Assembly (NCBI RefSeq): GCF_003334765.1 | Contig: NZ_QOWT01000002.1 | Length of the DNA: 64,000 nt | Reading direction: 5' to 3' (one strand) | From: Escherichia coli | GTDB lineage: Bacteria > Pseudomonadota > Gammaproteobacteria > Enterobacterales > Enterobacteriaceae | Part shown: one piece after another, positions 2,677 through 50,421 of the stretch | How the letters are laid out: each line of letters begins with the position of its first letter | Position numbering within the stretch: position 1 is the first letter of the stretch | The notes under the pieces: generated by a model | What the model was told of the DNA's origin: nothing | The model's input: the letters and a program-made list of their open reading frames with translations, nothing else | Databases searched by the model: none | Translations under genes and position numbers: made by a program

Positions 2677-3813
2677 TTAACGTGCCGGATGATGAACGGC
2701 GTTAAAACCCAGTTTACACAGCAATGATGCCGCACTGGCGTCATCACAAATTACATACAGAGATGACCATTCACGGCGCTCAAGATAGTTTTTGCGCAGT
2801 TTATCGAACTCACCCGGTATCCCGGCGACTTTACGCAGCGGTGCGTCATCGCGGCGCACATCATACACCAAATGCACCAGCCTTTTCAGCGTCGGTTGAT
2901 CGAGCGGGCCATGCAGCGTAATGCGACCAAACTCTGGCGCAGGCAGTAATGTATCCAGCGCAACGTGCTGTTCATGCCCAATAAACTTGCTATAAGCTTC
3001 AAACACTTGCGTAGTACCGCGTGCTTTACCTTCCAGGGTATAGCCTGCGATATGCGGCGTGCCGATATCCACTTTTTTCAGCAGCTCGACGTTGAGTTCC
3101 GGTTCGCCTTCCCAGACATCCAGCACTACGCTTAACTTCTGGCCTTCATTCAGGCAGGTCAGCAACGCAGTATTATCGACGACTGCGCCACGGCAGGCGT
3201 TAATCAGAATCGCTCCGGGCTTCAGGCTACGGATCAGTTTTTCATCCGCCAGATGTAGCGTTTTGTACGGACCATCTTTAAAGAGTGGCGTATGGAAAGT
3301 CAGAATATCCGCGCGCTGGACTAACTCATCCAGCGAGCGGAAATCACCCTCATCCCCACGGTCGGCGCGAGGCGGATCGCAAAGTAAGGTTTTAATCCCT
3401 AACGCTTCCAGTCGCGCCTGCAATCGACGTCCAACGTTACCAACGCCCACGATCCCCACCGTACGGTCGTACAGTGAAAATCCATCGCGTTCGGCAAGCA
3501 TCAGCAGGGAGGAGAAAACATATTCCACCACCGCAATCGCATTACAGCCAGGTGCAGCGGAAAAACCAATTCCCGCCTGCTTCAACCATGCTTCATCGAC
3601 ATGGTCGGTCCCCGCAGTGGCAGTGCCAACAAATTTAATGGGTTTTCCTGCCAGCAAAGATTCATTCACTTTCGTGACCGAACGCACCATCAGCGCATCC
3701 GCGTCTGCCAGTTGAGCGACGGGGATTGGACGCCCGGGAACCGCGGTCACCTCACCCAAACGGCTAAATAAGTCGCGGGCATAAGGCATATTTTCATCAA
3801 CAAGGATTTTCAC
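2677..3813 (-). CDS. pdxB: erythronate-4-phosphate dehydrogenase
   Basis: 378 aa D-2-hydroxyacid dehydrogenase fold ([12 protein letters not shown]). Confidence 0.9.
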
Positions 3814-3911
3814 GTTTGTGTTACCTGTATGAGACGAGAGTTAACCGGACAAGTGTGCCATAATCTCGCGGCCAGGCATACTTGCGAAGATTTCAGGTAT
3901 AAGGATACGTA

Positions 3912-6085
<2,174 letters not shown>

Positions 6086-45419: not shown

Positions 45420-46136
45420 ATGGAAAATAAAAAATCACTGACGACAGAACAGCTCGAAGACGCTAAGCGGCTTAAGGCTTTGTATGAGTCAAAAAAGAAA
45501 GAATTGGGAATAACCCAATACTCAATCGCTGATGAACTGGGTATCACCCAAGGAGCGGTAGGGCATTATCTTAATGGCAGAAACGCGCTAAACGTTGAGG
45601 TCGCATCTGGTTTTGCACGTTTGTTGCAAGTCTCAATTGCTGATTTTAGCCAGTCAATTGCTGCCAAGGTTGCAGAACAGGCAGAAAGCCTTAAGAGCGA
45701 TGCCAACGTAAGGTATGCAGGGGAATACAGAGCAGGAAAGAGGTATCCGGTGTTAAGCAGTATCCAGGCTGGCTCGTGGTGTGAAGCATGCGAACCATAC
45801 ACCATTAAAGACATAGATGTTTGGCTTGAGTCTGACGCGCATATTCAAGGTAATGCGTTCTGGCTTAAAGTGGAAGGTGATTCAATGACGGCACCGGTTG
45901 GGTTAAGCATTCCAGAGGGAACATTCGTTCTTTTCGATACCGGAAGGGAGGCGATCAACGGCAGCTTGGTCATAGCAAAACTTTCTGACTCTAACGAAGC
46001 AACATTCAAGAAGCTGATAATCGACGGCGGAAATAAATACCTCAAGGGACTTAACCCTGCATGGCCTCTCGTGCCAATCAATGGAAACTGCAAGATTATA
46101 GGCGTTGCAATTGAGACAAAACTAAGGCTGGTTTGA
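45420..46136 (+). CDS. cI: CI-like repressor (HTH plus S24 autopeptidase)
   Basis: 238 aa; N-terminal LTTEQLEDAKRLKALYESKKKELG; C-terminal GDSM...FKKL Ser/Lys dyad; Ala-Gly site. Confidence 0.9.
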   Translation: MENKKSLTTEQLEDAKRLKALYESKKKELGITQYSIADELGITQGAVGHYLNGRNALNVEVASGFARLLQVSIADFSQSIAAKVAEQAESLKSDANVRYAGEYRAGKRYPVLSSIQAGSWCEACEPYTIKDIDVWLESDAHIQGNAFWLKVEGDSMTAPVGLSIPEGTFVLFDTGREAINGSLVIAKLSDSNEATFKKLIIDGGNKYLKGLNPAWPLVPINGNCKIIGVAIETKLRLV

Positions 46137-46155: not shown

Positions 46156-46524
46156 ATGGTTGGAACCGCTATAGCAAGCTTTTTGGGGATGTTGGCAATC
46201 TCAACAATTTACGGCTTAGCGCATGCTTTTATTGCGAAATCTCTATCAGAAAAAATAAGCCAGGCTTGGGCGCATAGATCAGCTCGTTTCATGATTCTAG
46301 TGGTCATAGCAATACAAGGGATATCTGCATTTATCCTCTATGGATCAAGCTTATACCTGTTGTATCAAGGAGCGACATTTACGCCTTACACCAGTGATTA
46401 CGGAACTCTATACGATGGTAGTGAAGACATCTCTATGGCTTGGATCGTCTTTGGTTTATCTATGGCCGTGTCTGTTGTAGCAGACATCATTAAGGTAATT
46501 CTCGTCTTAACCTTCGCTGACTAA
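46156..46524 (+). CDS. small 4-TM membrane protein in rexB-equivalent position
   Basis: 122 aa, four hydrophobic segments, RBS aagggggg, starts 20 bp after cI stop. Confidence 0.55.
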   Translation: MVGTAIASFLGMLAISTIYGLAHAFIAKSLSEKISQAWAHRSARFMILVVIAIQGISAFILYGSSLYLLYQGATFTPYTSDYGTLYDGSEDISMAWIVFGLSMAVSVVADIIKVILVLTFAD

Positions 46525-46654
46525 CCCATAATCCCGGCAGCAATAGCTATCGGGATCCACTTCACATATCCCGCATAAAAAGCACTGAACAAGCAGATAC
46601 CGAAAAAATAAATATCCTTTGTATTCATTTGTTTATCATTATTTCATCAAAAAT

Positions 46655-46696
46655 AAATACCTTGGGTATTTACACAATAAAATACCTACAGTATTC
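46655..46696. promoter_or_regulatory. OL operators/PL
   Basis: aaataccttgggtattt and aaatacctacagtattc share the OR half-sites. Confidence 0.6.
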
Positions 46697-46743
46697 TTTA
46701 GCCATCAGCAGGACGCTGGAAGCCAAACGGAACAGATTGGCAG

Positions 46744-46784
46744 GCTCTTTAACATTGATGGGATTGTCCCGCCGAAATGCGGGA
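46744..46784 (+). promoter_or_regulatory. nutL (boxA plus boxB hairpin)
   Basis: gctctttaa then tcccgc-cgaaat-gcggga, identical boxB to nutR. Confidence 0.7.
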
Positions 46785-46891
46785 ACCAAAGAGTAGTTGG
46801 CTTTGGGGTGACGTGAAGTGCAGCTGCACGACGGCAACCGGAAGATAAGCACCCGGCGCGTCACCGCCAAAGCCAATCATCGGAGGTCAAC

Positions 46892-47188
46892 ATGATAATC
46901 GTTACTTATCTGGCTGATGATAACACCAGAAATCGCCGCAGAGCACGCAGACAGGCTCAACGTGAACAGGCAATGCAAGAACAGCGACTTGCGCGAAAAA
47001 TTGCGCTAAAGCTCTCTGGTTGCGTCAGAGCAGATAAAGCAGCATCACTCGGAAGCCTTCGCTGCAAGAAGGCAGAAGAAGTCGAGCGTAAACAGAACCG
47101 TATTTACTACCGCAAGCCACGCAGTGAAATGGGTGTGACTTGTGTTGGTCGCCAGAAAATGAAATTAGGCAGCAAACCACTTATTTGA
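46892..47188 (+). CDS. N: N-like antiterminator
   Basis: 98 aa; Arg-rich motif TRNRRRARRQAQREQ; C-terminus GVTCVGRQKMKLGSKPLI parallels lambda N. Confidence 0.85.
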   Translation: MIIVTYLADDNTRNRRRARRQAQREQAMQEQRLARKIALKLSGCVRADKAASLGSLRCKKAEEVERKQNRIYYRKPRSEMGVTCVGRQKMKLGSKPLI

Positions 47189-47196
47189 GGTGAGAT

Positions 47197-47667
47197 ATGA
47201 CAAAATCATGGAGCGTACCTTTTCCTGAATCAGAAACTGAACATGATGGAATGCCTGTTTTCTGGAGATTCCAAGCGACAGTTGAAGAAGATGGAATCAA
47301 AATATTCGCACTTCAATATATAGCTTTTCATCAGACAGAGCATTATGCATGGTTGGTTCCTGCGCATTGGATTGTTGATTTTAAACCAGCACCAAATCAG
47401 TGGTTACAGGAATGGAAACAAAAGAGAAATAGATATGCAATTAAGAAAGTAGCAAAAAATGCAGAAAGATCTTTTGCATTCCCAACGAAGAAACTTGCCA
47501 TTGAAAGTTTATTGCGCCGGAAGAAATACCATTTAATGAGAATAAAACAAGATTTGGCTGTTGTATCAACTCTTGTTGATGGGATGAAAAATATTGATAC
47601 ATCAACACCAGATATTGAATATAACTTTGGACACAACCAAGAAACAGAAAATTGGGTATTTTATTAG
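47197..47667 (+). CDS. hypothetical protein (moron after N)
   Basis: 156 aa soluble, AT-rich, good RBS. Confidence 0.5.
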   Translation: MTKSWSVPFPESETEHDGMPVFWRFQATVEEDGIKIFALQYIAFHQTEHYAWLVPAHWIVDFKPAPNQWLQEWKQKRNRYAIKKVAKNAERSFAFPTKKLAIESLLRRKKYHLMRIKQDLAVVSTLVDGMKNIDTSTPDIEYNFGHNQETENWVFY

Positions 47668-47771
47668 TACGAATAAGCACTGTGTATTCATTCCAACGAG
47701 TGAATACACGGAGCAATGTCGCTCGTAACTAAACAGGAGCCGACTTGTTCTGATTATTGGAAGTCTTCTTT

Positions 47772-47795
47772 GCCCTCCGATGTGAGGGCTTTTTT
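47772..47795 (+). terminator. rho-independent terminator (tL-like)
   Basis: gccctc-cgatgt-gagggc followed by T6. Confidence 0.7.
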
Positions 47796-47864
47796 ATATG
47801 CATACCAATAACGCTTCACGAGAGGTGTTTATTCATGAGCGTAAACGCTGATTAATGAACGCAG

Positions 47865-48392
47865 TTGATAGGATATAAAATGGCATTTATAAAGATTCTT
47901 GAATTAATTTCCCTAAGTGAGATTAATAATGTTGTCAAATATAACCCTATTTCTGGTGAGTTCACATGGCTAAAATCTTATGGAGCAAGAAAGATAGGTG
48001 GAACTGCCGGAACAATAACAACAAGCGGCTACTTAAGGATTTTCATTAACGGAAGACACTATGCTGCACATAGACTTGCATGGATTATCACTTTCGGTGT
48101 TGAGCCTGAAGGTATTATCGACCATATAAATGGCATAAAGACAGATAACAGAATTTGCAATCTGAGGCTTGCAACTTACTCACAGAATTCAATGAATAGT
48201 AAAATAAATACCCTCAACAAATCAGGTTGCAAAGGAGTCACATGGAAGAAGGAAAGTAGAAAGTGGGCTGCCTATGGGAAATTAAACGGGAAGAAAAAAC
48301 ATCTAGGGTACTTTAATGAATTAGAAGATGCCAAAAAAGCTTACTGCGACTTTGCCAGAAAGCATCACGGCGAATTCTACAGGAGCAAATAA
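47865..48392 (+). CDS. HNH endonuclease with AP2-like DNA-binding domain
   Basis: 175 aa; IDHINGIKTDNRICNLRLAT HNH motif; GVTWKK...YGK..GKKKHLGYF AP2-like. Confidence 0.75.
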   Translation: MIGYKMAFIKILELISLSEINNVVKYNPISGEFTWLKSYGARKIGGTAGTITTSGYLRIFINGRHYAAHRLAWIITFGVEPEGIIDHINGIKTDNRICNLRLATYSQNSMNSKINTLNKSGCKGVTWKKESRKWAAYGKLNGKKKHLGYFNELEDAKKAYCDFARKHHGEFYRSK

Positions 48393-48526
48393 TGAATGAA
48401 TATATTTTAGCGGGTAGCGGCGTCATGTCCGCTTTCTACCCGCACGAATCTGAATTATCACGCCGAGTTAAACAATTAATCAGAGCAGCAAAGAAACAAC
48501 TGGAGGCGTTATGCGCAATGAAATAG
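48392..48526 (+). CDS. cIII: CIII-like protein
   Basis: 44 aa; YILAGSGVMSAFYPHESELSRRVKQL parallels lambda CIII core. Confidence 0.6.
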   Translation: MNEYILAGSGVMSAFYPHESELSRRVKQLIRAAKKQLEALCAMK

Positions 48527-48663
48527 CCATTAATCACCAGATGCTTCGTGCTGCACAGAACAAAGCAGTAATAGCCAGATTTATTGGTGATTCCAAAATG
48601 TGGCTTGAAGCAAATAAAGCGATGAAATCAGCTATCAACCTTCCGTGGTATCGCAGGAAATGA
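48511..48663 (+). CDS. Kil-like small protein (tentative)
   Basis: 50 aa; IARFIGDSKMW resembles lambda Kil; follows cIII as in lambda. Confidence 0.4.
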   Translation: MRNEIAINHQMLRAAQNKAVIARFIGDSKMWLEANKAMKSAINLPWYRRK

Positions 48664-48744
48664 GTTTTACAGATAACTGGTCAGACGAAGAATTCATTCG
48701 TCAGATGAACAAAATGCTCAATCAGCACAAAGAACAGGAGAAAG

Positions 48745-49056
48745 ATGATGATTCTGACTCTGAATGATAAGCGTGAAATATCGCAAATAATCGCAAGTTT
48801 TACTGATGAAGATTACGAGCGAATCAACAGTGAAGTTGATCGCCTCTGCAAACGTTGCGACCCAATAAGCGAAATGCTTCGCTCATATAAACCAGATGAA
48901 CACACTAAGGACGCTATCGACTGGCTGGAAGATGATGACTGTAACTATCAGGAAAAAGCCGCTGAATGGTTCTGGGATGCAATAACCGAAAGAGTTAAGG
49001 CTGAATATGCCTTCGCAATATTTAAACGCAGACACATTTTTGGAGAAGCTGCATGA
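48745..49056 (+). CDS. hypothetical protein (gam/abc-equivalent position)
   Basis: 103 aa acidic, immediately upstream of recT. Confidence 0.4.
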   Translation: MMILTLNDKREISQIIASFTDEDYERINSEVDRLCKRCDPISEMLRSYKPDEHTKDAIDWLEDDDCNYQEKAAEWFWDAITERVKAEYAFAIFKRRHIFGEAA

Positions 49057-49955
49057 GCAATATCGTTGAATTCGTTAAACAGCAAGAGCAGTTATTCTGC
49101 GGAGCATTGACTGAACAGACGGTGACATGGGCTAAGGAAAGCCAGTTTGCAATTCAGTATTTCCAGAAAAACGATTACCTGGCTAAAACAGCACTGGCAA
49201 ATCCAACCAGCGCACAGAACGCCATCATCAATGTTGCGGCGATCGGCATCACCTTAAACCCGGCCAGCAAACTGGCTTATCTGGTTCCTCGCGACGGCAT
49301 GGTGTGCCTTGATATCAGTTACATGGGATTACTTCACCTTGCACAGTCGACAGGATCAATTAAGTGGGGGCAATGCAAACTGGTGTACTCAAACGACACC
49401 TATGAATCAAACGGCCTTGATTCAGCACCAACCCACAAATACAACGCATTTGGTAAGCGAGGCTCTATTGTTGGTGGTTATTGTACGGTTAAAACAGCAG
49501 ATGGTGACTACCTCACTGAAGAAATGAGTCTGGCAGAAATTAAAGCTGTGGAAGCAACGAGCAAGGCAAAGAATGGACCGTGGAAGACATTCTGGGAAGA
49601 GATGGCGCGTAAAACAATAGTTAAACGCGCCAGCAAATACTGGCCTAAAGCCCAGCGACTGGATAATGCCATTCACCTGCTTAACGAAGATGAAGGTATG
49701 CATCAGGAACCAGTTATGCCGCACAAATCAGAGGAAGATATCCGCGAAGATGAACGGAAACGCCAGCAGGAAATTATGGAAAAAGCACAACTTCTTTGTG
49801 ATGAAATGGCTCAGGCAGAAAACATGGATGATTTGAAGCGATATTTTGCAGAAGCATATCGCCTGACATCTGGAATGAAATTGCAGCAGAACGTACAAGC
49901 CATTTACATAGAATGCAAAGCGAAACTGGAGGTTGCCAGTGAGCAAACTGTATGA
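49053..49955 (+). CDS. recT: RecT-family single-strand annealing protein
   Basis: 300 aa; SKAKNGPWKTFWEEMARKTIVKRASKYWP matches RecT signature region. Confidence 0.8.
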   Translation: MSNIVEFVKQQEQLFCGALTEQTVTWAKESQFAIQYFQKNDYLAKTALANPTSAQNAIINVAAIGITLNPASKLAYLVPRDGMVCLDISYMGLLHLAQSTGSIKWGQCKLVYSNDTYESNGLDSAPTHKYNAFGKRGSIVGGYCTVKTADGDYLTEEMSLAEIKAVEATSKAKNGPWKTFWEEMARKTIVKRASKYWPKAQRLDNAIHLLNEDEGMHQEPVMPHKSEEDIREDERKRQQEIMEKAQLLCDEMAQAENMDDLKRYFAEAYRLTSGMKLQQNVQAIYIECKAKLEVASEQTV

Positions 49956-50421
49956 AATTGCCAATGAATACGCAAAATTGATGGATTCAGATTTAGAACC
50001 AGAGATGATTGCTGACACAATAGAAGGCATGGAAGGAGAATTTACCGATAAAATAGAGCAACTTCTTTCCGTCATTAAAAATGAATCTGGTTATGCTGAA
50101 CGCCTCAAGGAAGAGGCAAAGTCACTGAATGAGCGAGCCGCAGTAATTCAAAATAAGATTGACAGCATCAAATCATATATAGCGTCATCGCTTGAAATGG
50201 TTGGCAAGAAAAATATTCGAGCAGGTATTCACCAGGTAACAATCCGCAAACCGTCAGAAACTGTAGAAATCATCGACTCAAGCGCCCTTCCTCCTGAATA
50301 CCTTGAGTTTGAAACGACAATTAAAGCCGACAAACTGGCAATCAAGCACCAACTAAAAGCAGGAATAAATATTCCCGGTGCTCAACTCAAGGTTGGGAAA
50401 CCTTCACTTCTTATCAAATAA
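49933..50421 (+). CDS. Gp157-like protein
   Basis: 162 aa coiled-coil-rich, downstream of recT. Confidence 0.45.
   Translation: MPVSKLYEIANEYAKLMDSDLEPEMIADTIEGMEGEFTDKIEQLLSVIKNESGYAERLKEEAKSLNERAAVIQNKIDSIKSYIASSLEMVGKKNIRAGIHQVTIRKPSETVEIIDSSALPPEYLEFETTIKADKLAIKHQLKAGINIPGAQLKVGKPSLLIK

Follow-up and report, generated by a model that had tools for sequence, protein, structure and literature searches.

A gp45-family gene and a putative homing-endonuclease cassette between N and cIII of a lambdoid prophage of Escherichia coli

We analysed the interval between N and cIII in a lambdoid prophage of Escherichia coli (contig NZ_QOWT01000002.1, assembly GCF_003334765.1). All coordinates are positions within the 64,000-nt stretch of this contig that was studied, hereafter the window. 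The region from 45.4 to 50.5 kb is the immunity and early-left region of the prophage, with the pL operon on the + strand. In this operon, the N antiterminator (98 aa, 46892-47188, + strand, phrog_271 at E = 4.7e-35) is followed by an AT-rich open reading frame of 156 aa (ORF156, 47197-47667, +), an intrinsic terminator resembling tL1 (47772-47797, +), a gene of 170 aa encoding an endonuclease with HNH_3 and AP2 domains (47880-48392, +, hereafter the HNH gene) and cIII (44 aa, 48392-48526, +, phrog_550 at E = 2.3e-10), whose start overlaps the stop codon of the HNH gene. This is the layout that a first-pass annotation, made from the sequence alone, had described, and we found each of its components where it had been placed. 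The G+C content is 51-54% in N, 32-39% in ORF156 and 34-40% in the HNH gene. Downstream of cIII lie kil (48511-48663), two small ORFs, a gene for RecT (49053-49955) and a gp157/Gam-like gene (49933-50421). ORF156 and the HNH gene are both real genes, and neither is a new kind of element. The interval between N and cIII probably carries two unrelated accessory elements of the lambdoid pL operon: a gene of the HK97 gp45 family and a free-standing homing-endonuclease cassette.

We first concentrate on ORF156. It starts with an ATG behind GAGGTGA, 8 nt past the stop codon of N. Its product belongs to PHROG 1636, the family of HK97 gp45, which it matches end to end (residues 1-156 of 156, E = 1.4e-111). 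The amino-acid identity with gp45 itself (NP_037731.1) is 98%, and the HK97 gene also encodes 156 aa and likewise lies between N, which it directly follows, and a putative terminator. At the DNA level, positions 47135-47830 of the window are 97.7% identical to HK97, where this block is annotated as gene 45 plus terminator. The two differ around the block: the N gene of the window is of a different type except at its 3' end, and the terminator of the window is followed by the HNH cassette. The last ~90 nt of N (47103-47199) are a conserved linker in phages with differing downstream genes (blocks common to HK97, Dewey, 8GC and 2017-02-2CC). The gene had initially been taken as a peculiarity inserted at this locus. 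Instead, 598 of the 5426 complete E. coli genomes searched (~11%) carry it, as do 88 phage records, for the most part those of Stx1a/Stx2 converting phages, H-19B, BP-4795 and Min27. The homologues are annotated as 'hypothetical', and the copy in H-19B carries no annotation at all. We counted 271 contigs with the identical protein and over 500 for each of the sister sequences.

ORF156 is a real gene under purifying selection. Relative to HK97 we obtained a dN of 0.008 and a dS of 0.081, and dN/dS is 0.10-0.15 across homologues (0.15 with the homologue in Rosenbergiella). Among 21 enterobacterial homologues with 55-98% identity, 40 alignment columns are invariant. The first-pass annotation had left room for an untranslated frame or for a known benign family; we found a gene under selection, whose family match is to an uncharacterised family only. 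The homology and structure searches that it had proposed identified the family (PHROG 1636) and yielded no characterised relative; ORF156 has no Pfam, NCBIfam or PDB sequence match. The family was already known as an orphan. What is new here is the wider family, the structure model and the prediction of its expression.

The wider family was obtained with a profile search of 1.84 billion representative proteins, which returned 88 relatives of ORF156. These are proteins of 130-155 aa, and an alignment of 74 sequences conserves G33, E46-T47, K87, A101 and K109, along with a basic middle part. Pfam domains are absent from all 74. ORF156 itself is a soluble protein of 18.6 kDa that lacks membrane segments. 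An AlphaFold model built on the 74-sequence alignment reached a pLDDT of 96 and a pTM of 0.83 (an earlier model, from 21 sequences, had a pLDDT of 61). In it, residues 19-55 form a long antiparallel sheet of three strands and residues 98-130 a helix of 33 residues. There are also two short helices and a short hairpin, and the C-terminal tail is ordered. A Foldseek search of the PDB with the model of pLDDT 61 gave only noise. The search of AFDB50 retrieved only uncharacterised members of the same family, two of which are labelled 'transposase', an annotation that we treat as unsupported. We also considered an AP2-like domain in ORF156, where 'AFPTKKLA' resembles 'YFNELEDA', and rejected it (hhalign probability of 0.7%). 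The charge of the protein is unevenly distributed: the core (residues 61-130) is basic, with a pI of 10.5, and the two ends are acidic, with pIs of 5.0 and 4.2. This distribution suggests that the basic core (K83/K84/K87/R91, R107-K110 and R115), placed between acidic termini, may bind nucleic acid or an acidic host protein.

The genetic context gives indications on the timing of expression. From pL to ORF156, our scan of the + strand detected nothing resembling a promoter, and the first intrinsic terminator lies 3' of ORF156. Because it is upstream of this terminator, ORF156 should be transcribed together with N immediately once pL is derepressed. It would thus be an immediate-early product, made with N and independently of antitermination, and silent in the lysogen under repression by cI. 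The contexts of the homologues show that the family is confined to early regions of phages and prophages, always co-directional with the early operons. The homologue is directly upstream of xis-int in prophages of Pectobacterium and Brenneria, and in Rosenbergiella it heads the early-left operon. Other homologues are found among the small genes downstream of RecT/YqaJ, and those on short metagenomic contigs lie within runs of small genes with the same direction. In phage Bas81, which is not lambdoid, a homologue with 62% identity opens an operon and is followed by a ParB-like gene.

The neighbourhood of ORF156 is known to host exchangeable accessory genes. The genes ral, sieB and ea10 of lambda and gp17 of P22 and H-19B occupy slots of this kind in the same neighbourhood, and they are homologous to neither ORF156 nor the HNH gene. 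In lambda, the accessory genes are located after tL1. ORF156 differs from them in lying before the terminator. In another prophage bearing the HNH gene, that of E. coli 8GC, the slot after N is occupied by a putative nucleotide-modification gene of the Nmad5 family (positions 3315-3938 of locus L003) and not by ORF156. The most economical reading is that ORF156 is probably an exchangeable early accessory factor acting on the host.

Between the two accessory genes lies a structured intergenic module. The terminator has a GC-rich stem of 6 bp (GCCCTC/GAGGGC, 47772-47789) followed by TTTTTT, and the annotation of HK97 has a putative terminator at the homologous place. The RNA of the whole intergenic region (47665-47805) has a minimum free energy of -46.3 kcal/mol (z = -4.7). 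Besides the terminator, it contains two hairpins, one perfect over 12 bp (47682-47709, +) and the other imperfect. Scanning 46500-48700 against Rfam returned only chance matches. The module (47677-47797) is 95-99% conserved in phages with differing flanking genes. Hence, the intergenic region may be a recombination linker, a processing site or both. There is a second insertion slot just past the terminator: in H-19B (1463-1800 of L013) and in E. coli 2017-02-2CC (3101-3500 of L005) a gp17/DUF2528 gene related to P22 gene 17 lies exactly between the positions equivalent to 47797 and 47800.

We then turn to the HNH gene. Its product (phrog_99, E = 1.5e-68) matches HNH_3 over residues 61-105 (PF13392, E = 3.6e-15) and AP2 over residues 116-162 (PF00847, E = 3.7e-6), and the AP2 domain is precomputed in most close homologues too. 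We considered a TTG at 47865 as the start codon and rejected it; the ATG at 47880 is the one used by RefSeq and fits the N-termini of the homologues. Residues D81-H82 (48120-48125), N94 (48159-48161) and N103 (48186-48188) align with D74/H75/N87/N96 of I-HmuI (1U3E), from whose published structure we take their roles to be catalytic. The overall match with I-HmuI is of low identity (E = 0.016). D81, H82 and N94 do not vary across 40 homologues, and N103 is kept in at least 90% of them. The gene has a dN/dS of 0.08-0.10 relative to its homologues. The loss of catalytic residues, which would have undermined the first-pass annotation, is thus not observed, and judging from these residues the nuclease looks active.

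The combination of an N-terminal HNH and a C-terminal AP2 domain is a recognised architecture of phage homing endonucleases (PMC10448857). We compared the gene with the free-standing members of this class, such as the IPA-HNH genes of ICP1, with I-HmuI as the solved HNH_3-type relative. They likewise have an N-terminal HNH_3 domain with the residues of I-HmuI and a C-terminal AP2 domain. Like them, the gene of the window is intergenic, adjacent to a conserved gene and polymorphic for presence and absence. It differs from them by its location in a temperate lambdoid prophage, at the 5' end of cIII. Further differences are its overlap with the downstream gene, which it feeds translationally, and the persistence of this junction throughout a whole lineage. 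We count the HNH gene as a new member, with clear limits, of the HNH-AP2 class of homing endonucleases. Among 50,697 phage records we found no close match to its DNA; at the protein level, the best matches (~47-54% identity) come from other Enterobacteriaceae phages, in which several of these HNH genes are annotated as homing endonucleases. In one metagenomic lambdoid contig, a second HNH_3 gene lies between kil and erf (1129-1599 of L016), in addition to the cIII-linked relative, showing that several endonuclease genes can share one early operon.

The limits of the cassette could be defined, as the first-pass annotation had suggested, by comparison with phages lacking the gene. Pairwise BLAST junctions place a block of 579 bp (47831-48409, +) where HK97, H-19B and Dewey have 49 bp, with the same boundaries relative to all three. 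The left edge is blurred: partial similarity continues to ~47842. The 49 bp that are replaced correspond to the Shine-Dalgarno sequence and codons 1-6 of cIII. These codons read MNEYIL in the window and MMHFQL in HK97, while from codon 7 of cIII onward cIII-kil is 99.7% identical in DNA to HK97. The replacement Shine-Dalgarno sequence of cIII is the AGGAG carried by the last codons of the HNH gene (TAC AGG AGC AAA TAA). Its TAA shares one base with the ATG of cIII (TAATG at 48390-48394).

We searched for the cassette in the 5426 complete E. coli genomes, 2230 of which have the flanking sequence and 364 the cIII allele of the window. Among these 364, the HNH gene is present in 10 and absent from 354. 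In every genome without the gene, the similarity to the window ends at 48407-48410. Hence, the variant 5' end of cIII travels only with the HNH gene: the differing Shine-Dalgarno sequence and codons 1-6 strictly co-occur with it, in 10 of the 364 genomes. We sought to repeat this test in the lineage with 67% identity (L014), which had no match in the set of complete E. coli genomes. In the broader collection of contigs, the exact HNH protein occurs on 370 and the exact cIII variant on 379. The gene is found in several phage backgrounds. HNH DNA at least 99% identical lies behind three different upstream genes, namely ORF156 in the window, the Nmad5 gene in 8GC and a DUF2528/gp17-like gene in 2017-02-2CC. 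It also precedes two different recombination modules, RecT/gp157 or Rad52/SSB. One copy is cut short by IS1.

More distant relatives bear on the history of the association. HNH genes with 64-69% identity are found in another E. coli genome, in Atlantibacter and in metagenomes. Each encodes 170 aa, with a C-terminus of ...HHGEFYRSK/N, and overlaps the start of cIII by TAATG. At these loci, cIII-kil has diverged in step with the HNH gene, to ~70% nucleotide identity. The shared junction and the joint divergence indicate that the association of the HNH gene with the 5' end of cIII is old and specific. Such an association would be expected for an endonuclease with a target there; it also leaves room for a beneficial role or for translational coupling with cIII.

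Taken with the catalytic residues, the precise polymorphism (579 vs 49 bp), the presence in 10 of 364 genomes and the variety of phage backgrounds agree with the earlier proposal of a homing-endonuclease insertion. The HNH_3-AP2 gene is apparently a mobile, free-standing homing-endonuclease cassette. We propose the following scenario for its spread. When pL is derepressed, transcripts carrying N and ORF156 would stop at the terminator. Only once polymerase modified by N reads through it would the HNH gene and cIII be expressed. Upon co-infection or co-induction, the enzyme could bind near the 5' end of cIII in a lambdoid genome lacking the HNH gene, and nick or cut it. A GC-rich stretch just downstream of the cassette boundary, GCGGGTAGCGGCGTC, is a speculative candidate for the binding site of the AP2 domain. 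Recombinational repair (by RecT/Red and RecA) from the copy with the HNH gene would transfer the cassette and co-convert the first six codons of cIII. The altered codons would make the allele with the HNH gene uncuttable by its own enzyme.

It is important to consider what else could explain the presence of ORF156. The first-pass annotation had proposed that it could be a defence or an anti-defence factor, and the two halves of this proposal are not equally probable. As an AT-rich accessory gene that varies in position and is common in prophages, it would suit the role of a defence or superinfection-exclusion factor expressed by the prophage. Yet it lacks a dedicated promoter and lies 8 nt after N, inside the pL operon repressed by cI and before the first terminator, which argues against a defence expressed in the lysogen. 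Its sole match in PADLOC-DB 2.0 (Cas1_II, E = 0.01, 13 bits) is at the level of chance, the protein has no membrane segment, and the homologue with 62% identity heads an operon in the non-lambdoid Bas81. We thus regard prophage defence as very improbable. A specific role in counter-defence, i.e. as an immediate-early inhibitor of host or prophage immunity, is a narrower version of our best explanation. As ORF156 precedes the first terminator, it would be among the first proteins made, a timing comparable to that of T7 Ocr and lambda Ral. Its slot is filled by other accessory genes in related prophages, such as the Nmad5 nucleotide-modification gene, and its family occurs in temperate phages and, heading an operon, in Bas81. 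The acidic termini of the protein point in the same direction. However, ORF156 resembles no characterised anti-defence protein or fold. Our searches of the literature on HK97 gp45, its accession and locus tag, PHROG 1636 and the HK97 trigger or anti-defence screens also found no relevant report. ORF156 is found together with ral in some phages, and is therefore not a substitute for it. Counter-defence in this specific sense is possible, though we consider it doubtful. The evidence is more consistent with the broader reading of ORF156 as an early host-directed factor, for takeover or counter-defence, than with a regulator of lysogeny or a prophage defence. Some points weigh against this reading: the immediate-early timing is deduced from gene order and a predicted terminator, the binding of nucleic acid from charge alone, and the functional case as a whole comes from sequence, context and the structure model.

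The homing of the HNH cassette has to be weighed against retention for the benefit of the phage. The gene might encode a nuclease acting on the DNA of the host or of competitors, or the translation of cIII might depend on it, and its patchiness would then result from the exchange of modules between lambdoid phages. The dN/dS of about 0.1 and the constant length of 170 aa fit this explanation. So does the conservation of the C-terminus and of the Shine-Dalgarno sequence of cIII in the relatives with 64-69% identity, which have diverged jointly with cIII-kil. Lambdoid phages recombine at conserved linkers anyway, and such linkers flank the cassette on both sides (47800-47830, and cIII from codon 7). 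As a consequence, passive module exchange could yield the same distribution as homing. The co-divergence of the HNH gene and cIII-kil, the strong purifying selection and the constant length also fit vertical retention or domestication equally well as active homing. These observations count against the homing-endonuclease reading. On the other hand, the gene is missing from 354 of the 364 genomes with the same cIII allele, its architecture is typical of phage homing endonucleases, and the precise swap of the 5' end of cIII is what co-conversion and target immunity would predict. Hence, we consider it unlikely that the HNH-AP2 gene is kept for the phage and not by homing.

Other genes of the immunity region may also be of interest. 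The cI-like repressor (45420-46136, phrog_4) is directly followed on its 3' side, in the position of lambda rexAB, by a hydrophobic ORF of 122 aa (46156-46524, +, phrog_6534). The exact protein occurs on ~396 contigs and has no match in NCBIfam or PADLOC. It is a candidate for a membrane moron or exclusion factor expressed in the lysogen. Between this ORF and pL lies a very hydrophobic ORF of 35 aa on the minus strand (46521-46628), without a match in PHROG; the annotation of phage Dewey has a small minus-strand coding sequence at the equivalent place. A prophage contig with an Atlantibacter-type relative of the HNH gene (P0179) has a gene of the HicA toxin family in the rex position, downstream of its repressor (1281-1565 of L015).

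Neither the result on ORF156 nor that on the HNH gene changes current concepts. A more far-reaching interpretation, which we regard as tentative and improbable, concerns both genes. The gp45 family, whose confidently predicted fold has no solved counterpart and whose product would be made alongside N within the first minutes of derepression, would represent a new class of counter-defence or host-takeover proteins with immediate-early expression; separately, the HNH lineage would be a selfish element that makes the translation of cIII depend on it. If this were true, the gp45-family protein would be a determinant of the success of induction of Stx phages, and the lysis-lysogeny decision would become dependent on the HNH lineage. 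Independently of this, few uncharacterised early genes are as common as ORF156 in the lambdoid and Shiga-toxin phages of E. coli, and it is a well-defined candidate for knock-out and defence-panel work. The HNH cassette provides a clean natural case of a homing-endonuclease-like element in temperate lambdoid phages that carries a replacement translation-initiation region for the gene that it abuts. It should be useful for understanding how selfish nucleases shape the boundaries of lambdoid mosaics and, possibly, the expression of cIII.

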